Positions 3,401 through 63,545 of a stretch of DNA of 64,000 nucleotides are shown here, in pieces. Position numbers and translations under genes: made by a program. Under the pieces are notes generated by a model, which did not search any database, was not told the origin of the DNA, and was given only the letters and a program-made list of their open reading frames with translations. Every line of letters begins with the position of its first letter. Positions within the stretch are counted from its first letter, which is position 1. The DNA is from an uncultured Prevotellaceae bacterium (GTDB taxonomy: Bacteria > Bacteroidota > Bacteroidia > Bacteroidales > Bacteroidaceae). The DNA is taken from assembly GCA_900314715.1 (NCBI GenBank), contig OMWI01000007.1, forward strand, positions 43,841-107,840, written 5' to 3'.

Positions 3401-4415
3401 TTCCTATTTCTTTCAAAAACCGTTTGTTTTGTGCGATTAATTTTACCTTAATTCTTATCCTCGAAATAATGATTGTGACAAGTTTGGGAAAGTCATTCCA
3501 TCTTATCATTTTCTTGTTTCTCAATTTGAAAAGTAAAAGTCTGATTTCTAAATTATTTCGTAAGTGTTGACTTTCAACGAGATGCTTTTCTTCATTTCCT
3601 TTAAGAATCTTCTTTACCCATGATTCCATCTCCTTGGTTGTAACAGATGTGTCAACACCACATGATAGTAATTTATGGTATCTGTATTCCCTGTCGGTTG
3701 GTATGATCCCCAATCTTGCCAGTCTCCTTTTTCGAATGATATCTGCTGCTTTGTTTTGTTCGTCCCTCTTTTGTGATGTAATTTGAGCTGCATGTACTCT
3801 ATAGTACAACAAAACATCACTCAAAACCGCTAATTTCCCATATATGCTGGCACGTTCCCAAAGATCATAATCTTGTGCTTTTAATACATTCTCATCGTAT
3901 GACAAATTGTTTTTTTCAAGAAAACACTTGCGTATCATTACTGAAGGGTGGCAAAGAGTGCTTGAGAAAAACAACAAACATTTTGCTTCTTGGTCAGATA
4001 ACCCAAAAGCGGGACTCATAAAAATGTGTTCATTACCAAACGACACAACTCCTGTTCCCACAATGGCTATATCTTGATGAATATTTAGAAAATCAACTTG
4101 TTTTTCTAAGCGGTCAGGTGTAGCAATATCATCTGCATCCATTCGGGCAATAAATTCCCCTTTAGCCAATTGAAGTCCAATGTTGAGCGATTTAGTCAAC
4201 CCTTGGTTGATATCATTGTGAACAATTTTAACATTTGGCCTATTATCGCACAGTTCTTTTAAAACCAATTTACAAGATTCATTGGAAGCATCATCAATTA
4301 CTATCAATTCGACATTCTGATAGGATTGTCTAAAAAGACTTTCAAAAGCCGACTTTAGATGTTCCTTTTTTTCGTTGTGAACACCCATTACAACAGAGAC
4401 TAATCCTCTTTCCAT
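3393..4415 (-). CDS. Glycosyltransferase family 2
   Basis: VSVVMGVHNE...DDASN...ARMDADD are GT2 motifs. I prefer Met20 of the track ORF (MERGLVSVV) as the start; the 5' extension to 4472 overlaps the upstream GT2. Confidence 0.85.
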   Translation of the reverse strand: MERGLVSVVMGVHNEKKEHLKSAFESLFRQSYQNVELIVIDDASNESCKLVLKELCDNRPNVKIVHNDINQGLTKSLNIGLQLAKGEFIARMDADDIATPDRLEKQVDFLNIHQDIAIVGTGVVSFGNEHIFMSPAFGLSDQEAKCLLFFSSTLCHPSVMIRKCFLEKNNLSYDENVLKAQDYDLWERASIYGKLAVLSDVLLYYRVHAAQITSQKRDEQNKAADIIRKRRLARLGIIPTDREYRYHKLLSCGVDTSVTTKEMESWVKKILKGNEEKHLVESQHLRNNLEIRLLLFKLRNKKMIRWNDFPKLVTIIISRIRIKVKLIAQNKRFLKEIGNE

Positions 4416-54850: not shown

Positions 54851-55522
54851 TTAATTCTCTATATTCTCAATACTTACGCCATCGAATTGGTCCATGAGGT
54901 CAATGATGCGCATTTCGTATTTGTCGCGCTTAATTTTGATGTCCATGTTCACGCGATAGACTACGCCAGAAGCAATGTGCGTCTCCTTCATGCTATATGA
55001 ATCGAGTTCCATTCCGTCATTGCGTAGGTTATCAAGTATCTTACGAATGTCTTCTTGTGTGGGAGAAGTAAAGACCACGTTGATGATGCGCTTGCCAAAT
55101 CGGTGCAATATCCAGTTGAATGCCTCAAGACTTATCAGTACCAATACGGTAGACGAAATGGCAAGTAAATACATCCCACCTCCACACGTTAAACCGATGG
55201 CTGCCGTTACCCATAGGCCTGCTGCTGTGGTAAGTCCCTTCACCACATGCTTTTGGAAGATAATCGTACCAGCGCCGATGAATCCGATACCCGTTACCAC
55301 TTGTGCCGCGATACGCGATACGTCCAAACGATGTTCGGTAGAGATAAGTGCCCCTTCGAAACCGTATGCGGAGATAACCATGAAAAGGGCCGAACCTAAG
55401 GCTACGAGGAAGTGGGTGCGGAATCCTGCTTCCTTTGAACGATATTCACGTTCCAATCCAATAATACCGCCTAATACGGCTGCTATGGTAATTCTTAAAA
55501 TGAAATCTGTTGTCATTGACAT
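54851..55522 (-). CDS. mgtC: MgtC/SapB-family membrane protein
   Basis: ILRITIAAVLGGIIGLEREYRSKEAGFRTH is the MgtC signature; 223 aa. Confidence 0.88.
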   Translation of the reverse strand: MSMTTDFILRITIAAVLGGIIGLEREYRSKEAGFRTHFLVALGSALFMVISAYGFEGALISTEHRLDVSRIAAQVVTGIGFIGAGTIIFQKHVVKGLTTAAGLWVTAAIGLTCGGGMYLLAISSTVLVLISLEAFNWILHRFGKRIINVVFTSPTQEDIRKILDNLRNDGMELDSYSMKETHIASGVVYRVNMDIKIKRDKYEMRIIDLMDQFDGVSIENIEN

Positions 55523-55534
55523 AGGAGTTGATTT

Positions 55535-56617
55535 TTATGAGTTTTGTTTTTTAGGAATGAATAACGAAAGAAGAATGCTGACGGTCAATACGGAGACAAT
55601 GACCAACAGCGACCATATTGCATCGATTTCCACGTAATCGTGGAGTAGGAGTTTGACACCAATGAAAAGCAGCAATATGCAGATGCCTGGTTTGAGAAAG
55701 CGAAACTTGTCTGCTATTCCTGCCAACAGGAAGAACATGGCACGCAATCCAACGATGGCCAGAATGTTGGAGAAGAACACCACGTAAGGGTCGAGCGATA
55801 CGGAGAAGGCAGCAGGTATGCTATCGAATGCAAAGACGATGTCTGCTAATTCGATGAAGATAACCGTTACCAACAAGGGCGTGATACACCATTTTCCCCC
55901 TTTGCTCTTTGTTGCCACTTCCATTTCACCATGAGTCTTCTTGGCTCGAACGAAGAAAGCATCACCATGAAAATGCGGATAGATGCGGAAGAACTTGGAT
56001 AGGAGTCTAACGGCAAAATGATTTTGCACGTCAATGGCCTCTTCTTGTTCTTTTTCAAAGAGAATCTTGATGCCATTGTATATGAGCAAGAGTCCGAACA
56101 CCAATAATATCCAGTCGAATCTCGCAATGAGTGAAGTTCCTACGAAGATGAAGATGAAACGCAATACGATAGCTCCAAAGATACCCCAATTGAGAACGTG
56201 CTGATATTCCACTTTGCTCACACCGAACGAGGTAAATATGAGGAGCATCACGAAAAGATTGTCTACCGACAATGTCTTTTCCAAGAGATAAGCGGAAAGA
56301 TATGCGATAGACATATTGTGACGATACAATGATACACCGCCTTCAAAGTCGTTGGTATCAATATGGAGGTGAGAGGCATATCGTTGAGTCACGTCTTGCA
56401 AGTCGCCCATGTTCTCTATGCCATGTACCATATCACCGTGAAACCACAGGAAACCAGCGAAGCAGAATGCAAGGGCAACCCATACGGCCGTCCACAATCC
56501 CGCTTCCTTCATGGACACCTCGTGGGCTTTGCGGTCGATGACCAACATGTCGATGAGCAAGATACCCACGATGAAGGCAATGAATAGGACAAAGAATATC
56601 GTTTCTGTTGAAAACAT
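55535..56617 (-). CDS. terC: TerC/Alx-family integral membrane protein
   Basis: Multi-TM with the LSVDNLFVMLLIF and ELADIVFAFDSIPA duplicated TerC motifs. Confidence 0.85.
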   Translation of the reverse strand: MFSTETIFFVLFIAFIVGILLIDMLVIDRKAHEVSMKEAGLWTAVWVALAFCFAGFLWFHGDMVHGIENMGDLQDVTQRYASHLHIDTNDFEGGVSLYRHNMSIAYLSAYLLEKTLSVDNLFVMLLIFTSFGVSKVEYQHVLNWGIFGAIVLRFIFIFVGTSLIARFDWILLVFGLLLIYNGIKILFEKEQEEAIDVQNHFAVRLLSKFFRIYPHFHGDAFFVRAKKTHGEMEVATKSKGGKWCITPLLVTVIFIELADIVFAFDSIPAAFSVSLDPYVVFFSNILAIVGLRAMFFLLAGIADKFRFLKPGICILLLFIGVKLLLHDYVEIDAIWSLLVIVSVLTVSILLSLFIPKKQNS

Positions 56618-56669
56618 ATTATTATCAATGTGTAAAACAAAGTGAAGTCATAAATAACATTTCATGATG

Positions 56670-56677
56670 CAAAAATA
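56670..56677 (-). promoter_or_regulatory. -7 promoter box (TAttTTTG) for terC-mgtC
   Basis: Exact TAnnTTTG, ~53 nt upstream of the terC ATG. Confidence 0.5.
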
Positions 56678-56867
56678 CAAAATAAAAGTGAATTGGTTTA
56701 TTAGAATAAACACTTTTTTGTGGATTGTCAAGTTTAACATAGATAATTTACATGCAGTGACATGATTTTATTGCTGATTGTTCGTTATATACAAGTTATC
56801 TATAAGACATCTACAAAAATTTTTATAATTTTTCTCCATAATAGAATTATAAATGTAATTTTTTGTT

Positions 56868-56875
56868 TATCTTTG
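56868..56875 (+). promoter_or_regulatory. -7 promoter box (TAtcTTTG) preceding the candidate structured RNA
   Basis: Exact TAnnTTTG with a T-rich upstream region. It is the only exact box I find on the plus strand between 56618 and 57434. Confidence 0.5.
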
Positions 56876-56879
56876 CAAC

Positions 56880-57307
56880 AGACTCTCAATTTCTTTTAGA
56901 CTAGGTGCATCATAAGACTTGCATTAAATCACTAAGAGAAGATATTCCACGCCGAGCCAAGTGAGGCGAAAACTGCTATAACAAGGTGGGTATTGGGTGG
57001 GAGAGAGTCGTTAAATATATAGTAAAAAGGCGTTTACTTAGACGCTCATCTCTACGTTCCAAACTTCGAACATCTGGAAACCCTGTAGTTGATGACGCAA
57101 CAGTAGATGTCCTCGGGATGTGTATATACATGTTCCCTTGTTTGCAAATTGGGTATTTGATTTAGATATGCCTAATATGTTGTTTTGCAAGGGTGTATTA
57201 TATTCATATCGGCGTGGGCTTCGGAGTTGCTTATCTTTACAGGGTGGCAAGTTCGAAGGCCAGGAACGTGAGATAAGTGACAGGCACGAATCTCACGCTT
57301 CTTTTTT
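56880..57307 (+). ncRNA. Candidate ~430-nt structured RNA of unrecognised class (stand-alone RNA or long attenuating leader of the downstream operon)
   Basis: Bounded by a -7 box and an intrinsic terminator. Local G+C is ~50% (hand count) against ~25% in the flanks. Several long-range complementarities: 56881-87/57003-09, 56947-53/57211-17, 57081-87/57238-44, 57135-40/57188-93. No convincing ORF. Confidence 0.5.
57267..57307 (+). terminator. Rho-independent terminator at the 3' end of the candidate RNA
   Basis: cgtgagat / atctcacg form an 8-bp stem (plus an inner gtg/cac), followed by cttctttttt. Confidence 0.75.
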
Positions 57308-57434
57308 ATAATAAAGTTAGTGTGATTTTTGAGTTTTGTGAGAATCATTACTAATTCTTATAATAATTATGGTAAAAGTTTTTAGTTTTTTCTTTAATCG
57401 AAGTAACTTGTTCTTGTATCACAAAGTTGCAGGT

Positions 57435-58223
57435 ATGAGGCGATATGCTGTCGCAACAGCTATTCTATTAGTGACTTTTAGCTCTTCAGTTTCTGCTCAA
57501 GAAAATCCATGGATATTTGGATTGTATACACATGGATACCATTTTATCACAGGTAACATCCTGTCTCTTGCTAGGCAAATTGTGAATATTCCAATAGCTA
57601 AGGCAACAAATGGAGCAGCTTCTTTTGATCTAATTCCATTTAATCTTCATTACATGAGTTTCAAAGATAATGGTGAAAATGTGGATTATAAAATGGGAAA
57701 TCCGTATGGTTTTACAGCGTATGATTTGTTTAATGATTTGGAAGTAGGTGTTAAATTTGGGTGGCAAGGAGCCCAGTCTCCAATAGGTGCTTATGTGTAT
57801 GGTGCATATAGTATTAATCAACACAAAATGCGTTTCTTGGGTGAGCAAGAATATAGCAAGCATAAAATCCAAAGTTTCAAAGCTGGCATAGGTGTAAGAA
57901 TTTCTCCTTTAAGGTATTTGATGGATGATTATGATTGGTGTCCAATTATAGAATTGGGAACAATCTATGTACATAATTTTATGTATAAAGGTCCTAATGG
58001 AAGTGACATTGATCAGTTAAATAATGGTATGCGCACCTCATATGCCATTGGAGTTCAATTTGACGAAGGAGAACAGACTGTATTGGCATGTATGGATATT
58101 GCACACTACAACCTATTTAATAAAAACTATACACCCGATGATGGGTTCTGGTTTCCATACGCTAACTTCAAAAATCGTGATTTTTACTTTAGTATACGAT
58201 ATAGTAAAACTTTAGATTTTTAA
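57435..58223 (+). CDS. Secreted outer-membrane beta-barrel-like protein, paralog A
   Basis: Signal peptide MRRYAVATAILLVTFSSSVSAQ, alternating amphipathic strands, C-terminal Phe. Paralogous to 61920..62690. The track start at 57369 is less likely. Confidence 0.6.
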   Translation: MRRYAVATAILLVTFSSSVSAQENPWIFGLYTHGYHFITGNILSLARQIVNIPIAKATNGAASFDLIPFNLHYMSFKDNGENVDYKMGNPYGFTAYDLFNDLEVGVKFGWQGAQSPIGAYVYGAYSINQHKMRFLGEQEYSKHKIQSFKAGIGVRISPLRYLMDDYDWCPIIELGTIYVHNFMYKGPNGSDIDQLNNGMRTSYAIGVQFDEGEQTVLACMDIAHYNLFNKNYTPDDGFWFPYANFKNRDFYFSIRYSKTLDF

Positions 58224-58228
58224 TTAAT

Positions 58229-58636
58229 ATGAATATGAAAGTGATGAAGTGTTTATTTAATTTTTTATTATCATTGATAATATGCAATATCTTATGCTTG
58301 AGTTGCAAAAAAGATGATTTTAATCCAAGTCCGTCAGTACCATTTAATATAGTATGTAATGATTCGATACTTCATAATGGTGACTCTTTGTATGGACGTG
58401 TTGTTGTCAATAAGAATAAGATGATAAATGGTACAGTAATTAAGAAGATTGATTGCAGATTAGGAAATATTGTTATTGGTACTTCAGAGGATAAGTTTGA
58501 GTGCCCATTTGGGGTTCGATTGAAAGATAAGCCTATTGGAAAGCATACTTTCTCAGTTATTATCAAATGTGAAGTTCCTAATTATGACGAGACTTTTTGG
58601 AGACATGATTATAAAATGATTACTATAAAACAATAG
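58229..58636 (+). CDS. Small lipoprotein, unknown function
   Basis: Lipobox ...ILCLSC-KKDD; 135 aa; beta-rich composition. Confidence 0.6.
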   Translation: MNMKVMKCLFNFLLSLIICNILCLSCKKDDFNPSPSVPFNIVCNDSILHNGDSLYGRVVVNKNKMINGTVIKKIDCRLGNIVIGTSEDKFECPFGVRLKDKPIGKHTFSVIIKCEVPNYDETFWRHDYKMITIKQ

Positions 58637-58640
58637 AATT

Positions 58641-59186
58641 ATGAGAATGAGTCTTTTATTATTGTGGAGCATGTTATGCTCAGTTACTTCATTTGCGTCT
58701 TGCAATGGAGCAAAGGAAAAAGGTGGAAAGTATGAGGTGCGACCAGATTCAGGGGTGTACTACATGCTTGGGAAAACTATGTCGGACATAATGTTTAGTC
58801 CTACTAAGGTGACTTGTTACACCATTCTAGGAAAATCAAAAGTTTCTAAAGAAGATTATGAGTTGGAGCCACATTATGTTAGAGATTCTTTGATAGCAAA
58901 ATTGACTTCAAATCAAATAACACTATTGCAGTTTAACCTTCTCTCTGATGAGGAAAATTATAAGGAAGATTCCATCAAAGTAAAGAGTCCTTATGTTCCC
59001 TGTATAGAGATCTGTTTTGAAAAGAAAAAACAACAGCCTGTTCATGTGATTATTTCTTTCTCTGATTATAGTTGGACTGTTGTTTATGATGACAAACGCC
59101 AATTTAATTGGAACTATGCAGATAAAAGGCAGATAGAACGTTTGTGTAAAATGATTATGGGTGACGTGTTTAATAAAAATAAATAA
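58641..59186 (+). CDS. Lipoprotein, unknown function
   Basis: Lipobox ...VTSFASC-NGAKE; 181 aa. Confidence 0.6.
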   Translation: MRMSLLLLWSMLCSVTSFASCNGAKEKGGKYEVRPDSGVYYMLGKTMSDIMFSPTKVTCYTILGKSKVSKEDYELEPHYVRDSLIAKLTSNQITLLQFNLLSDEENYKEDSIKVKSPYVPCIEICFEKKKQQPVHVIISFSDYSWTVVYDDKRQFNWNYADKRQIERLCKMIMGDVFNKNK

Positions 59187-59201
59187 GGTAATTAAAATCA
59201 A

Positions 59202-60353
59202 ATGTTTATGAAGCGATTATTATATTTATTAGCCATTATGGCATTAAGTAACTTTTATGATGTGAAGGCAGAGAATGTAAAGGTACATGCTATAGTGTTT
59301 TGTAACACCAACGATCAAAAAATTGGTGAAAGCTGTAAAAATGATCAAATTCGATTTATTGAACAGATGGGAATCATAGAGACGGCCCTTGGCTGCGATG
59401 TTGATTGGATGAACATTTATACAGGCAAAGAATGCAACAAGCCAAATTTGGAAAGTGCAATGTCAAATTTAAAGTGTAATTCTAATGATGTCGTATTCTT
59501 CTATTATTCAGGTCATGGAGTTCATGCAAAAGCCGACCCTGCTGATGGTTGGCTTCCTCAAATGTGTTTAAATTACGAATCATATGATCAAGATAAATTT
59601 GTGCCTGTAACATATGTAAGGGATAAACTTGCATTAATGAATGCAAGGCTGAAAATTATCATTACTGATTGTTGTAATAATGAGGCATCTTGGGTTACGG
59701 TAAAAGGATTGATAGCTTCTGATGAAAGTACACCAAATGTTGATGACATAGATGTTGGGAAATTGAAGAAGCTATTCATTGATAGTCGTGGTACAGTGAT
59801 TGCCACAAGTAGTAAACGAGGTCAGATGTCTTTAGGTCCTAAAGAGGGAGGGTGCTTTTCAATGGCATTTTGGGATGAAATATATCAAATAGAGCATGGT
59901 AAAGGGTCTCCAAACTGGAAATCTGTTATGGAAGAAACAAGAAAAAGGACGTTATCATATACAAATAACAAACAAGAACCAGAATTTAAGGCTGATGTTA
60001 ATATTGATGGCTATAATTCTTCACTCCCCCCCCAAACAACTCCAAATCCTGTCATTATTGCTGTAGGTGAAAATGAACTTGGTGAGGCTTTTAAGCAAAT
60101 AGTTAATCCATCATATAGTAGGATGGAACGTAAAAATATGGTAGGAGGCATTGTACAAAGATTGTTTGATCCTAAAGCCCAGGTAATTATGGTAGGGAGA
60201 AATCTTACATCTAAAGTTGGTGAGCCCCAAAATATATCAGATTATCTCAATGAATTGGCACTGAGTAAGACTGTAAGAGGAATTAATATTATAAGAGCGA
60301 ATAAAAGCAATTCAGGGAAATATGATTACATTATTGTTAGTGAAATAAGATAA
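59202..60353 (+). CDS. Secreted caspase-like cysteine protease (clan CD, peptidase C14-like) with an extra ~100-aa C-terminal domain
   Basis: Signal peptide MFMKRLLYLLAIMALSNFYDVKA. A hydrophobic strand plus SGHG (VVFFYYSGHG, His105 at 59514-59516). A hydrophobic strand plus DCC (KIIITDCCNN, Cys157 at 59670-59672). The spacing is caspase-like. Confidence 0.7.
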   Translation: MFMKRLLYLLAIMALSNFYDVKAENVKVHAIVFCNTNDQKIGESCKNDQIRFIEQMGIIETALGCDVDWMNIYTGKECNKPNLESAMSNLKCNSNDVVFFYYSGHGVHAKADPADGWLPQMCLNYESYDQDKFVPVTYVRDKLALMNARLKIIITDCCNNEASWVTVKGLIASDESTPNVDDIDVGKLKKLFIDSRGTVIATSSKRGQMSLGPKEGGCFSMAFWDEIYQIEHGKGSPNWKSVMEETRKRTLSYTNNKQEPEFKADVNIDGYNSSLPPQTTPNPVIIAVGENELGEAFKQIVNPSYSRMERKNMVGGIVQRLFDPKAQVIMVGRNLTSKVGEPQNISDYLNELALSKTVRGINIIRANKSNSGKYDYIIVSEIR

Positions 60354-60368
60354 TACATATTAATTGTT

Positions 60369-61025
60369 ATGAAAACAAAAGTTTTATTAATTTTGATGGT
60401 TTTTTGTGCATTTGTAATTAATGCTTATGCACAGAGTGGGTATGAACTTTCACAAGAAGAGAGGGAAACAATCGAACAACGTGTCATTGAAAAGATTAAT
60501 GACTTCCTTTCTTATCTCCCTGAAATAGCGGCAAAAAGCGACAAGTCAAAAGAAGAAAAGGAACTCGCATTAAATTATATTGATTTGGCCTTGAAACTTT
60601 TCATAGGAGAAGGAAAAGATTATCAATATAGAGATCAAGCTGGGGTCTGGCGTTGGCATGAAGCAGTTAAGATGCAAACTACTTCAAGGGGAAGGGCGAA
60701 TAGACCACAGCCTATGGTAAGGTATTTAAATAAGTTAATGGCTTTGCCATACCAAACAGTGGAAGTTGACACTTGCTCTGCAGTAAGGATAAATAAAAAA
60801 CTTCATCCTACTGGTGATGGTCGATATACCGGAAGTGCTGTGTTTATTCAAGCTTTTCGTGCAACTCGTGATGGACGGCTCGTCGTTAATGACAAGGATG
60901 CCAAGCAAGTTACAATTTATGTTGAACGTAAAGATATAGATTTGGGACCTATTGGTGGAATAGAGACTGTTTGGATTATAAAGCTTGGCGATATTAGGAT
61001 TACTACTAGCTGGAGCAGTATGTAA
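60369..61025 (+). CDS. Secreted protein, unknown function
   Basis: Signal peptide MKTKVLLILMVFCAFVINAYAQ; 218 aa. Confidence 0.6.
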   Translation: MKTKVLLILMVFCAFVINAYAQSGYELSQEERETIEQRVIEKINDFLSYLPEIAAKSDKSKEEKELALNYIDLALKLFIGEGKDYQYRDQAGVWRWHEAVKMQTTSRGRANRPQPMVRYLNKLMALPYQTVEVDTCSAVRINKKLHPTGDGRYTGSAVFIQAFRATRDGRLVVNDKDAKQVTIYVERKDIDLGPIGGIETVWIIKLGDIRITTSWSSM

Positions 61026-61104
61026 ATTAATTATTTAATACTGAAAGCCTTGGGTTATATAAATGTAATCCCAAGTGCTGTAGTGAAAGAGACAAGGTTG
61101 TATT

Positions 61105-61923
61105 ATGAGAGAAATTTTGATAATTATCTTAATCGTATCATTAGCAATGGATAGTAAAGGACAGTCGGTGTCAATGTTTGGCACGGAAGATTATTATGAT
61201 ACAATATTCCGTCAAAGTGTTAAGTCTTGTGATGAATTTATGTGTAGATTCAATGAAGAAGAGTTTTTTCCTGATTTAGAGAAGAATGATCCTCAGTTAG
61301 GACAAAAAAACTTCTTGATGCTATTTGACTATGAAATGGCAAAAGATAAAAATAAAGACGATTTTTTGAAACAAGTTTTTTTATTTTATGATGCAGTTAA
61401 AACAAATGGGACAAAACTGAAATATGAAAGTAAAAATTGGTATGCAGAACAGCGTATCATGTTCTTCTTTAATAAAAAACCAATCGAATTATGTTTAATC
61501 TTACAACCAGATAAAACGCCCAAAAAACTTTCATGTTGGACAGTTGTTGGTGTTAATGGATTAGAGAAAGTTGGATATAAGGATGCTGTTGATAGAATGG
61601 CTATTAGCCCAGAACAGCATGAAGCGGAATTCATTGAGTTAGAAAGTGTTTTTAAGTTTAACTCAAAAAACTTTTCTCAATTTAGAAGTTACAATTGTCA
61701 TCTTGATGCATTAAGTTATTTCTTTGCGCTTGTGGAAAAGGGAATGTTAGTATTTGACAAACGTATATCCACTACTTTTCATTTCTTTGATGTGCCCTCA
61801 TATGTGTTTAGTGTAAATTATTTTAATAGAAAAAAATCAAATACAGGATGGTTAATCTCTGAATATAAAAAAGTCAGTTATGACGAAAAAGAGTCAATCT
61901 TAAATAAATTATTAAGCAAATGA
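61105..61923 (+). CDS. Secreted protein, unknown function
   Basis: Hydrophobic N-terminus MREILIIILIVSLAMDSKGQ; 272 aa; ATGA overlap with the next gene. Confidence 0.55.
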   Translation: MREILIIILIVSLAMDSKGQSVSMFGTEDYYDTIFRQSVKSCDEFMCRFNEEEFFPDLEKNDPQLGQKNFLMLFDYEMAKDKNKDDFLKQVFLFYDAVKTNGTKLKYESKNWYAEQRIMFFFNKKPIELCLILQPDKTPKKLSCWTVVGVNGLEKVGYKDAVDRMAISPEQHEAEFIELESVFKFNSKNFSQFRSYNCHLDALSYFFALVEKGMLVFDKRISTTFHFFDVPSYVFSVNYFNRKKSNTGWLISEYKKVSYDEKESILNKLLSK

Positions 61924-62690
61924 AAAAAATAATACCAATACTTATTTGTTTCTTGTGTGTACATTCCAACATAATGGCACAATCAGAAATAAAGTTTAAG
62001 AATCATCATCTGATTTTTAATTGTGATATCGCATCAGGTAATCCATATATCCTTGCAGCATCAAGTGTTAGTACAGGATTAATAAACTATTATTTGTTAA
62101 ATGATGCTTTTTTTGAAAACTCTTTTGCATATAACTTATATTCAACAAATGTGGATGGTTTAAAAGCTAAGACCATGAACCCTATGGGATTGACAGCAAG
62201 TGAACTATTTAATAATTTTCAAGTAGGTTTAAAACTTGGTTATCAGACTTATAGTCCAGAATTCATAAATGTTGGTCTTTATGTGTCTGCACATTATAAA
62301 ATAGATCAATTCAAGATAGGGACAAATGATGATAATATGGCAAAGCATCGAGCACAAAGAGCAATATTTGGAACAACTGCTTTGTTGTCTTTGGGAAGTA
62401 TGGGACAACCATCGCGTATAATAATTGAGGCAGGATGTCGTTATAGCTTTGGTCTTGCTTACAAGTCACCATTAGGAAACGATAAAGATCAACTAAATGA
62501 TGGATTTGTTAGTCATTTTGGAATCAAGATAGCAAGTAGAGGAATGTTACAAAATATTGGTATTTATGCGGATATCAATCATTTCAATTTGTGGAAAGAA
62601 TATCGTACGAATCAAAAATTAAATAATTGGACTGTGGGTGTAACATGGACAATTACTCCTCAACAAGCTGATAACAGAAAAAAAATGTAG
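61920..62690 (+). CDS. Secreted outer-membrane beta-barrel-like protein, paralog B
   Basis: Signal peptide MKKIIPILICFLCVHSNIMAQ. Blocks shared with 57435..58223: NPMGLTASELFNNFQVGLKLGYQ vs NPYGFTAYDLFNDLEVGVKFGWQ; DKDQLNDG vs DIDQLNNG; DINHFNLW vs DIAHYNLF. Confidence 0.6.
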   Translation: MKKIIPILICFLCVHSNIMAQSEIKFKNHHLIFNCDIASGNPYILAASSVSTGLINYYLLNDAFFENSFAYNLYSTNVDGLKAKTMNPMGLTASELFNNFQVGLKLGYQTYSPEFINVGLYVSAHYKIDQFKIGTNDDNMAKHRAQRAIFGTTALLSLGSMGQPSRIIIEAGCRYSFGLAYKSPLGNDKDQLNDGFVSHFGIKIASRGMLQNIGIYADINHFNLWKEYRTNQKLNNWTVGVTWTITPQQADNRKKM

Positions 62691-62693
62691 ATT

Positions 62694-63545
62694 ATGAAAA
62701 TAATTATATCTTTTGTTTTTTTGTTGATTCCATCTTTTGCATTTTCTTCGGCCATAGATAATCAATTTCTTTCAAAAGCTGAAAGGAAGGTGGAAACTAT
62801 GTATCAAGATTTGAAGATACTTTCTGATAAGAACTCTTCAAAAGCACGTGAGATTAGAAGAACTTTTGTGGACAAGTATTTTAAGGAATCTGATCAGAAT
62901 TCTCCTAATGAATTTAAGTATCTTGGATATAATAACCCAGATGTTCAAGCTTTTAAAACAGACATTGCAGCTCGTGGATATGTTAACTATTTCTATGATA
63001 TGTTTCGAAACCAAAAATATGCAAACTGTTCTTTTAGCTTTCAGAGGAGATATAGCAACATTATACATGGACCAGAATTTAAAAAGAATGAAGCTCCCCC
63101 CAAATTGGCTCAAGTTATTGTAAGAAAAGTTTATTCTCGAAATGGAAAACCATTTCAAGTATTTGAAGATACATTAATCGTGGGATTGGAGCAAATGAAA
63201 GTACATAAGTGGGCCAATAAGATAAGTCGGCACCACATTGGCGATTTCGAAAGTAATCAAATATTGGATGTTGAGCAGATGAAAGATAATGCTGATTTAG
63301 CGTATGATAAAAAGAACTATCATAAAGCATATCAAATTTATCAGTCAATAGTTAACAAATATCCAAATGAGGGAGATCCGTATTATCGGATGGCAATTAT
63401 GCTCTATAAAAAGAACTATGGGGAATATTTAAATAAAAAAGAAAGGCAAAAACTTATCCTTGATTATTTGGATAAGGCAATAAATCTTGGCACTTCTACA
63501 ACCAAAGCATGTGCTGACAATATGAAATATTGGATTACATGTTAA
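62694..63545 (+). CDS. Secreted protein with a C-terminal TPR-like helical segment, unknown function
   Basis: Signal peptide MKIIISFVFLLIPSFAFSSA. The C-terminal AYDKKNYHKAYQIYQSIVNKYPNEGDPYYRMAIMLY looks TPR-like. Confidence 0.55.
   Translation: MKIIISFVFLLIPSFAFSSAIDNQFLSKAERKVETMYQDLKILSDKNSSKAREIRRTFVDKYFKESDQNSPNEFKYLGYNNPDVQAFKTDIAARGYVNYFYDMFRNQKYANCSFSFQRRYSNIIHGPEFKKNEAPPKLAQVIVRKVYSRNGKPFQVFEDTLIVGLEQMKVHKWANKISRHHIGDFESNQILDVEQMKDNADLAYDKKNYHKAYQIYQSIVNKYPNEGDPYYRMAIMLYKKNYGEYLNKKERQKLILDYLDKAINLGTSTTKACADNMKYWITC

Follow-up and report, generated by a model that had tools for sequence, protein, structure and literature searches.

What is the stretch of about 430 nt that lies directly 5′ of an exported caspase-like operon in a 64,000-nucleotide piece of DNA (here called the window) from an uncultured Prevotellaceae bacterium, contig OMWI01000007.1? 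An earlier interpretation made from the letters alone (the sequence-only reading) proposed a structured RNA bounded by a promoter and a terminator, serving either as an attenuating leader or as an independent non-coding RNA (ncRNA), and suggested examining Rfam, homologues and covariation. All three support that proposal. The stretch is a real, intricately folded RNA, and the segment 56878-57307 on the + strand is a member of a large Bacteroidales leader-RNA family. Comparison of the sequences makes it probable that the RNA acts in cis, as a leader that is a conditional intrinsic terminator with several alternative states. The interpretation given in the sequence-only reading is thus supported, and its observations are partly confirmed.

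The RNA is delimited by the following elements.

56868-56875, + strand: -7 box TATCTTTG, of the Bacteroidetes TAnnTTTG type
56878-57307, + strand: the whole RNA, from the end of the box to the end of the U-tract, with a predicted start site
57267-57307, + strand: the terminator end, comprising a stem and a U-tract

The box is present exactly as had been noted, and TATCTTTG is the sole TAnnTTTG sequence on the + strand between 56176 and 57752, in agreement with the claim that no further box precedes the operon. TAnnTTTG occurs at chance level in the window (66 found, 65 expected), which counts against the weight of a single match. The TATCTTTG box has weight because its position is conserved, a box at the matching distance being found in 104 of the 120 listed homologous loci. 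The intrinsic terminator that had been placed at 57267-57307 is likewise there, as a G+C-rich stem lying directly before a U-tract. In the local hairpin CGUGAGAU (57267-57274) pairs with AUCUCACG (57290-57297) and is followed by the U-tract at 57299-57307; a U-tract follows the stem in 117 of the 120 listed genome loci. This hairpin is an alternative to a long-range outer stem, the 3′ strand of which is CUCACGCU (57292-57299). A simple terminator scan for loops of 3-8 nt did not list the stem in the window, probably since the loop is ~15 nt.

The + strand of the interval folds with an energy of -144.4 kcal/mol (z = -5.71; none of 100 shuffled sequences is as good), and the - strand has z = -3.45. 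The interval was said to have no credible open reading frame (ORF), and this is borne out: the longest of its five mechanical ORFs (51-70 aa) is 70 aa, and none has a Pfam match at E<=1. The base composition had been overestimated. It was put at ~50% G+C, and is 41% for 56878-57307 and 43.5% for 56940-57300. The RNA is thus level with the window mean (40%), and it is conspicuous only beside its flanks of 22-25%.

The RNA has abundant relatives, found with two patterns. The first, GGCGTGGGCTN{3,8}GTTGCTYRTN{8,14}GGCAA, was drawn from the 3′ part common to four operon-linked copies, and matched at least 120 loci in GTDB contigs (one genome per species), almost all of them Bacteroidales. Among the matches listed are Prevotella, Segatella copri, Hallella, Xylanibacter, Paraprevotella, Alloprevotella, Bacteroides, Phocaeicola, Mediterranea, Parabacteroides, Muribaculaceae and Paludibacteraceae, with certain genomes occurring twice. 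The second pattern is independent, coming from the 5′/middle domain, and was searched in metagenome contigs; it is matched by the window itself and gave at least 120 metagenome loci. Of 113 that extend far enough, 109 also have the 3′ domain, and in about 80% of this independently selected set the sequence GGCGTGGGCT is exact. The two halves are therefore one unit, and their conservation is not mere ascertainment.

An nhmmer model of the 3′ domain, built with the window sequence left out, finds 57201-57304 (E = 1.6e-17) as the only copy within the window. This segment has the succession of conserved elements of the family 3′ domain, GGCGUGGGCU...GUUGCUYRUY...GGCAA-loop-GCC...GRAYRRGY...CCCACGY. 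The window also has the family's middle domain, in which P2 (GRCGUU...RYGUC) surrounds a hairpin and is followed by GCAAC, and its two ends, the TAnnTTTG box at 56868-56875 and the stem with U-tract at 57292-57307. The box lies mostly 190-300 nt 5′ of GGCGTGGGCT in the listed genome loci that have it, so typical members are ~300-330 nt long (median 320). The window copy reaches 430 nt because of two additions.

56881-57009, + strand: 5′ extension, in which GACUCUC (56881-56887) pairs with GAGAGUC (57003-57009), enclosing the P1 5′ strand and GGGUGGG (56995-57001)
57115-57193, + strand: variable region, comprising P4 (57115-57136) and an insert hairpin (cccttg 57135-57140 : caaggg 57188-57193), differing in length and sequence among homologues

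The 5′ extension also occurs in two other lineages (L013 and L015), and the typical shorter members are without it.

Members were also found on metagenome-assembled genome contigs labelled Oribacterium, Clostridia or Lachnospiraceae (L042, L044, L075, L087, L108 and L122); we take these to be mis-binned Bacteroidales contigs and not a true presence in Firmicutes. Unannotated copies lie on plasmids of Phocaeicola dorei, P. vulgatus and Bacteroides finegoldii. An association with phages was rejected, the pattern being present in 1 of 2.9 million viral contigs and in one unannotated 4-kb record of a phage collection.

The sequence-only reading could not match the RNA to any known family, and the same was found with Rfam 15. 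At the gathering score the whole window gave no matching family, and at E<=10 the section 56600-57500 gave nothing relevant; the models not matched by the window include RNase P, tmRNA, 6S, SRP, T-box, cobalamin and other riboswitches, as well as ROOL, GOLLD, OLE, raiA and Bacteroidales-1. No family match was obtained for 18 homologous loci at the gathering score, nor for 6 further loci at E<=1, and ARAGORN found neither a tRNA nor a tmRNA. Two loci that contain members have ordinary Rfam matches close by that we take to be unrelated to the RNA, namely a TPP riboswitch in Paraprevotella clara (L028:1546-1638) and two tRNA genes in Phocaeicola oris (L038:265-435).

The fold was examined in an alignment of 97 full-length members (A3), in which 37 proposed pairs were counted. 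The helices that are not part of the arms discussed below are these.

57029-57037, + strand: P2 5′ strand GGCGUUUAC, pairing with 57103-57111
57097-57111, + strand: GCAAC junction (57097-57101) and P2 3′ strand GUAGAUGUC (57103-57111), the columns being nearly invariant in A3
57226-57236 : 57271-57281, + strand: mid stem of the 3′ hairpin, GUUGCUUAUCU : AGAUAAGUGAC
57211-57218 : 57292-57299, + strand: outer stem, GGCGUGGG : CCCACGY

Over all the proposed pairs 97.0% of cells are paired, compared with 91.3% in shuffles (0 of 500 reach the observed value) and 40-55% when the partners are slid, and the covariation score is 0.363 against 0.253. In P2 93% of cells are paired and six of the nine pairs are changed on both sides; in the mid stem 96% are paired, with double changes in three of ten pairs. 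The outer stem is 99% paired, with wobble changes and no double changes. When RNAalifold was applied to full-length alignments from MAFFT or hmmalign, the 3′ hairpin alone emerged, joined in a single run by part of P2. Because the variable segments were misaligned, we used anchored duplex tests on each sequence with non-cognate controls, together with the pair counts.

Strong covariation links two hairpins, the X arm of the middle domain and the Y arm that forms the core of the 3′ hairpin.

57047-57096, + strand: X arm, with P3 (57047-57055 : 57085-57094) and P3b (57057-57061 : 57075-57079)
57054-57060, 57064-57071 and 57081-57087, + strand: X-arm blocks that pair with Y, respectively x1 ACGUUCC, x2 (the loop, CUUCGAAC) and x3 CCCUGUA
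57226-57281, + strand: Y arm, with the mid stem and an inner stem (57246-57248 : 57259-57261)
57238-57244, 57251-57258 and 57263-57269, + strand: Y-arm blocks that pair with X, respectively y3 UACAGGG, y2 (the loop, GUUCGAAG) and y1 GGAACGU

The X-arm loop (57064-57071) forms a 7-bp helix with the apical loop of the Y arm (57251-57258) that is 100% paired in A3. Six of its seven pairs are changed on both sides, with neither one-sided changes nor G.U pairs, and more than 10 Watson-Crick variants occur, such as CUUCGCA:UGCGAAG, UCUCGCA:UGCGAGA, UCUGGUA:UACCAGA, UCUAGCA:UGCUAGA and CCUGAGA:UCUCAGG. The complementarity continues on both sides: 5′ of its loop the X arm pairs with the stretch 3′ of the Y loop (x1 with y1 in the window; duplex energy -22.3 kcal/mol), and 3′ of its loop with the stretch 5′ of the Y loop (x3 with y3; -21.6 kcal/mol). 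Pairing each segment with its own partner or with that of another member gave the following energies.

X5′:Y3′: cognate -18.1, non-cognate -10.1 kcal/mol
X3′:Y5′: cognate -20.1, non-cognate -12.3 kcal/mol
X arm, local hairpin: cognate -13.6, non-cognate -9.1 kcal/mol
Y arm, local hairpin: cognate -18.1, non-cognate -15.5 kcal/mol
X5′:Y5′ and X3′:Y3′, same-side controls: cognate effect absent

The cross-pairing was replicated in the independent metagenome set. G.U pairs make up 10-16% of the X:Y pairs, mostly with U in X and G in Y. Such pairs would be mismatches on the opposite strand or in a DNA repeat, and with their strand bias they indicate a constraint on the + strand RNA. Cross-complementarity extends to segments that the two-hairpin state leaves as internal loops, so the arms must at some stage form an extended kissing complex (a four-way junction like that of CopA-CopT) or a long X:Y duplex; the latter is the arrangement in the minimum-energy fold of the window.

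A further long-range helix, P1, joins the 5′ region to the terminator.

56947-56955, + strand: P1 5′ strand CCACGCCGA, pairing with 57209-57217
57209-57218, + strand: P1 3′ strand UCGGCGUGG (57209-57217), overlapping the outer-stem 5′ strand GGCGUGGG (57211-57218)

Across the family the 5′ strand of the RNA pairs with GGCGUGGG and with ~10 variable bases on its 3′ side; examples are GACUCAGCCAGCC:GGCUGGCUGAGUU, CAGUUAGCCCAC:GUGGGCUAACUG and GCAGAAGUCCGC:GUGGGCUUCUGC. When cognate duplexes were compared with non-cognate ones, 0 of 2000 permutations were as good. In the independent set the longest contiguous helix has a mean of 10.5 nt, compared with 7.9 nt when the 5′ regions are shuffled. Within the subtype of the window the cognate test gave -23.7 versus -21.8 kcal/mol; a shuffle control was used in its place, because the target GGCGUGGGCU hardly varies in this subtype. 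P1 covers most of GGCGUGGG in most members, and would therefore compete with the outer terminator stem. The near-invariance of GGCGUGGG amid varying partners fits a segment that serves two partners. Other pairings are also available: the RNA 5′ strand has a local G-rich partner, GGGYGGG, and the potential partners of GGCGU in P2 are a nearby ACGCU, the P2 3′ strand and the 3′ CCCACGY strand. At the terminator, therefore, the 5′ strand shares bases with the P1 3′ strand, and the 3′ strand has further potential partners.

We can now place the complementarities that had been picked out in the window. All four are present, and two are family-wide helices: ccacgcc/ggcgtgg is part of P1, and ccctgta/tacaggg is block 3 of the X arm-Y arm pairing. 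The pair gactctc/gagagtc, related to a pairing in L013 and L015, is read as clade-specific, and cccttg/caaggg closes the variable insert. A C(UUCG)G loop had also been proposed at 57219-57224; in the family alignment this is the variable segment after GGCGUGGG, paired with the RNA 5′ strand, and not a tetraloop hairpin.

What does the RNA control, if anything? A same-strand ORF of at least 70 aa comes next after the U-tract in 92 of the 110 informative listed loci (84%), with a median gap of 70 nt. A TAnnTTTG box is found in two of these 92 gaps, at or below a rough chance estimate of ~5%. The window follows this pattern, its downstream ORF being co-oriented and starting at 57369 or 57435 across a gap that is free of such boxes. 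We favour the leader reading because a co-oriented ORF lies so close downstream with no promoter box between, and because P1 overlaps the terminator.

The genes so placed are varied. The first ORFs belong to 60 different Pfam families among 100, and the commonest, LRR_5 (BspA type), accounts for only seven. Others are Big_2, LytTR, NusG/UpxY-like, Cro/C1 helix-turn-helix, DUF5683, DUF3575, outer-membrane beta-barrels, MACPF and UDP-galactopyranose mutase. By a crude hydrophobicity test 53 of the 100 have a signal-peptide-like N-terminus, compared with 34% of background ORFs. The common pathway that links the genes regulated by a riboswitch was not found among these 100 first ORFs.

A small hairpin with the loop YGGGGAGU was seen in the gap of some loci, a median of 34 nt after the U-tract and just 5′ of the start codon. 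It is present within 80 nt of the U-tract in 36 of 117 loci and within 110 nt in 39 (L027, L056, L067, L077, L093, L102, L110 and L115 are examples), with stems that seem to covary. Its loop shows complementarity to ACUCCC, on the terminator's 3′ side, with a weak cognate-specific signal (6.5 versus 5.65 nt), and this is not used as core evidence.

The mechanism that we propose builds on P2, the X-arm and Y-arm hairpins, the loop-loop complementarity, the cross-complementarity of the arms and the pairing of the 5′ strand with GGCGUGGG, all of which are demonstrated by the comparisons above. Transcription would begin at the conserved TAnnTTTG promoter and run into the long 3′ hairpin and U-tract. 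In the off state GGCGUGGG would pair with the 3′ CCCACGY strand, forming the outer stem over the Y hairpin, so that polymerase stops and an RNA of ~300-430 nt is released. In the on state the P1 5′ strand would hold GGCGUGGG, leaving the 3′ strand free and the terminator open, and polymerase would enter the downstream operon; in the window the gated genes would be those of the exported caspase-like operon. The X-Y contact may help or oppose P1, and so could steer the choice of state as the Y arm leaves the polymerase. Candidate triggers are small ligands, proteins and physical or kinetic cues. The diversity of the downstream genes speaks against a pathway metabolite; a protein factor, some global signal, or a cue of the kinetic or physical kind would fit it better.

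Several points weigh against this proposal. The terminator and the switch are both predictions from sequence. Since the first pattern dictated the outer-stem 5′ strand, the conservation of pairs in that stem, within the set found with this pattern, is partly ascertainment; the outer-stem sequence was confirmed in the loci found with the second. In the minimum-energy fold the 3′ CCCACGY strand can pair with GGCGU of P2, and therefore the stem before the U-tract is perhaps multi-state and termination possibly constitutive. In 18 of the 110 informative listed loci the next downstream gene is not a co-oriented ORF of at least 70 aa. Lastly, the functional heterogeneity of the downstream genes is unusual for a metabolite riboswitch.

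The last of these points would suit a different kind of RNA, a stand-alone stable ncRNA that works in trans, as a ribonucleoprotein or a multimer, and for which the terminator is a mere 3′ end. The downstream genes, which have no common function, would then owe their expression to leak or to promoters that went unrecognised. In favour of this reading, the terminator hairpin covaries, is highly conserved and belongs integrally to the fold, and two long-range interactions clamp it to the 5′ domain, as is seen in compact ornate RNAs. Pairing between the loops and between the arms could even be intermolecular, assembling copies of the RNA, as covariation does not distinguish pairs within a molecule from pairs between molecules. 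Against such an RNA stand the closely spaced, co-oriented ORFs with few boxes in the gaps, and the overlap of P1 with the terminator stem; a weak argument in the same direction is that the gap hairpin, which about a third of members have, would be made only when polymerase reads through. We consider a stand-alone RNA unlikely, though it is the main rival of the leader.

Processive antitermination of the put or EAR type, in which the folded leader would bind polymerase and modify it to read through its own terminator and later ones in long operons for surface proteins or polysaccharides, is improbable. The RNA does have a large conserved structure and heads operons that are in part long (that of the window has ~8 genes), and two loci begin with a NusG/UpxY-like gene. 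Against this, short first ORFs are common (23 of 100 are <=100 aa), no similarity to put or EAR was found in Rfam, and the alternative pairings around the terminator better fit a local switch.

We give very little credence to inverted repeats acting at the level of DNA, as sites for an invertase or recombinase in phase variation or as the end of a mobile element. The X and Y arms are indeed long inverted repeats, with surface, capsule and toxin-like genes nearby, and in Bacteroidales these classes of gene are found under invertible promoters. The G.U pairs and strong strand bias of the arms argue otherwise, as do repeats that vary freely with compensatory changes and have no fixed sequence recognisable by a recombinase; moreover the promoter is outside the repeats, and 92 of 110 informative listed loci have one orientation relative to the gene. 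Least probable of all is a non-functional spacer or decayed gene remnant, which could draw on the mechanical ORFs of 51-70 aa in the interval and is for practical purposes refuted by covariation. These ORFs lack Pfam matches, the substitutions in hundreds of homologues preserve the helices, and from member to member the variable segments are of very different lengths.

Returning to the conditional terminator, we can compare the RNA with known systems. Like T-box and cobalamin leaders it is promoter-proximal and several hundred nt long, with an alternative upstream partner for the 5′ strand of the terminator, and its loop-loop contact resembles the kissing loop that links the aptamer of the cobalamin riboswitch to the expression-platform hairpin. 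It differs in matching neither Rfam model, in having downstream genes without a common pathway, and in complementarity that runs far beyond the loops into both arms. This last feature recalls CopA-CopT and RNAI-RNAII, where a kissing complex grows to an extended kissing complex or four-way junction. There too two hairpins have complementary loops, internal loops and upper stems, and here the loop-loop helix is Watson-Crick only. By contrast, the hairpins of the family are on one transcript, ~150 nt apart, with one of them inside the terminator, and have no plasmid-replication context. The separate opposite-strand transcripts of CopA and CopT were not found, both arms being on the same strand within the same box-to-terminator interval; the likeness is thus mechanistic only.

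The overlapping alternative helices also resemble the four-segment attenuators of trp and his, in that the 5′ strand has a choice between a local G-rich partner and GGCGUGGG, and GGCGUGGG in turn can join either that strand or the 3′ CCCACGY strand. They differ in that room for a leader peptide was not seen in the short 5′ regions of typical members; for this reason, and because the genes are not biosynthetic, the choice is not made by a translating ribosome. With ROOL, GOLLD, OLE and raiA the RNA shares a length of several hundred nt, many helices, long-range contacts of pseudoknot type and discovery by comparative genomics. Unlike them, it lies ~70 nt 5′ of a co-oriented ORF and is essentially restricted to Bacteroidales in the genome scan, and it is unmatched by their Rfam models.

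We therefore assign the family to a new class within a known kind, the cis-regulatory leader RNAs. More tentatively, it could represent a class of large riboregulators with multiple pseudoknots, not described before and numbering hundreds of copies in Bacteroidales of the gut and rumen, that gates accessory loci (many of them for surface or secreted proteins, capsule, toxins or peptides) by an intramolecular, CopA/CopT-like extended kissing interaction together with a terminator, in response to a global signal or factor.

Bacteroidales dominate the human gut and rumen. Few RNA-based controls are known for them, and both Hfq and ProQ are reported to be absent. Placed before hundreds of accessory genes that are unrelated to one another, a leader of this kind would give these bacteria a common point of control over changes of surface and secretome; the genes include those for BspA-type LRR proteins, MACPF, Cys-rich peptides with radical SAM-like ORFs, capsule-type NusG and the exported caspase-like operon. 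For structural studies of RNA the cross-complementary hairpins, the Watson-Crick-only loop-loop helix and the 5′-3′ pairing over the terminator are of interest. The high interest of the family comes from its abundance in dominant gut and rumen bacteria and from its unusual architecture, and the existence of cultured carriers makes it directly testable; these are Segatella copri N016-9 (L132), Phocaeicola sartorii DSM 21941 (L138), Paraprevotella clara YIT 11840 (L028) and Hallella spp.

No description of the family was found in the literature searched, sequence motifs included, or in one set of supplements. One published candidate may be a fragment of the RNA. HMP2_1881 is a 108-bp candidate structured RNA of human microbiomes, mostly from Bacteroidetes, that lies near radical SAM genes and is expressed in 13 of 13 occurrences (Fremin & Bhatt 2021, PMC8040213). 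The likeness is that ~10 loci of the family precede a Cys-rich peptide gene followed by radical SAM/SPASM-like ORFs. At its length HMP2_1881 would be at most one domain of the RNA, and no architecture or function is described for it; motif strings of the family were not found in the 200 supplementary files that could be searched.

The cassette in question is recurrent downstream of the RNA (~10 loci, among them L056, L065, L070, L075, L107, L127, L134 and L139). It consists of a Cys-rich peptide of ~90-135 aa with a TAT-signal-like SRREFFK motif, and then two radical SAM/SPASM-like ORFs; the names were read off the sequences, and the radical SAM/SPASM assignment does not come from a Pfam scan. 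The cassette resembles a locus for ribosomally synthesized and post-translationally modified peptides, headed by the leader RNA.

In the window the RNA is followed by the operon with which it was first associated.

57435-63545, + strand: downstream co-oriented operon of ~8 genes, with no TAnnTTTG box between the RNA and the operon start
57313-57322, + strand: AAAGTTAGTG box in the gap after the terminator

The operon encodes a 262-aa protein with a signal-peptide-like N-terminus, lipoprotein-like proteins of 135 and 181 aa, and a Peptidase_C14 caspase-like protein (59202-60353); the remaining four proteins have no Pfam domains. BLASTN finds pieces of the RNA 5′ of this operon in three further lineages (L013/14, L015-17 and L022-25), and L013, L015 and L022 have the family RNA upstream of it in different genomic contexts. 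The caspase-like operon is found in none of the 120 listed genome loci of the family. Of the claim that the RNA is a leader for this operon, the leader part is thus favoured, and the link to these particular genes is not specific.

The copies of the operon in L013-L025 lie in several different genomic contexts, on contigs that are apparently Prevotella. In L022-25 two extra ORFs (79 and 146 aa) separate the RNA from the operon. In another lineage (L018-21) the operon has a different, shorter leader of ~190 nt (L018:3513-3720) with its own TAATTTTG box; in it a ACCTCGCAAAAC segment resembles the X-arm loop, CGUCUUCC pairs at long range with GGAAGACG, and the end is GCGCTTTCTCTTTG. The family 3′ domain is not detectable in the L018-L021 leader, which may be a degenerate or alternative version of the family RNA. 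The AAAGTTAGTG box of the gap is also found in L015 (~3946-3955), and as a variant, AAAGGTTAGTG, in L018 (~3720-3730); it is thus seen in three operon lineages, including one without the 3′ domain of the RNA.

On the other side of the RNA are the divergent genes TerC (55535-56617, - strand) and MgtC, the pair occupying 54851-56617 (- strand). Most of the related loci compared (L003-L012) keep these two genes together. Homologues of TerC, and of the first gene of the operon, bear the name Prevotella, in line with a Prevotella-like source of the window. In relatives with 66-86% identical TerC a PIF1 helicase or Zip transporter gene adjoins TerC, and both RNA and operon are absent; RNA and operon therefore resemble an inserted or variable island. 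The gap between TerC and the PIF1-family helicase gene is only 54 nt in the closest relative, and on this side of TerC the window has a 250-nt AT-rich spacer, then the RNA and the 6-kb operon. A tie between the RNA and TerC was rejected on the same grounds, and since operon and RNA recur together elsewhere, the RNA moves with the operon and not with TerC. The yybP-ykoY riboswitch often precedes genes of the TerC family; Rfam detected neither it nor another riboswitch before TerC in the window. The TerC promoter is probably the TATTTTTG box at 56670-56677 (- strand), 53 nt 5′ of the start codon; it and the RNA promoter point away from each other across an intergenic region of 22% G+C.

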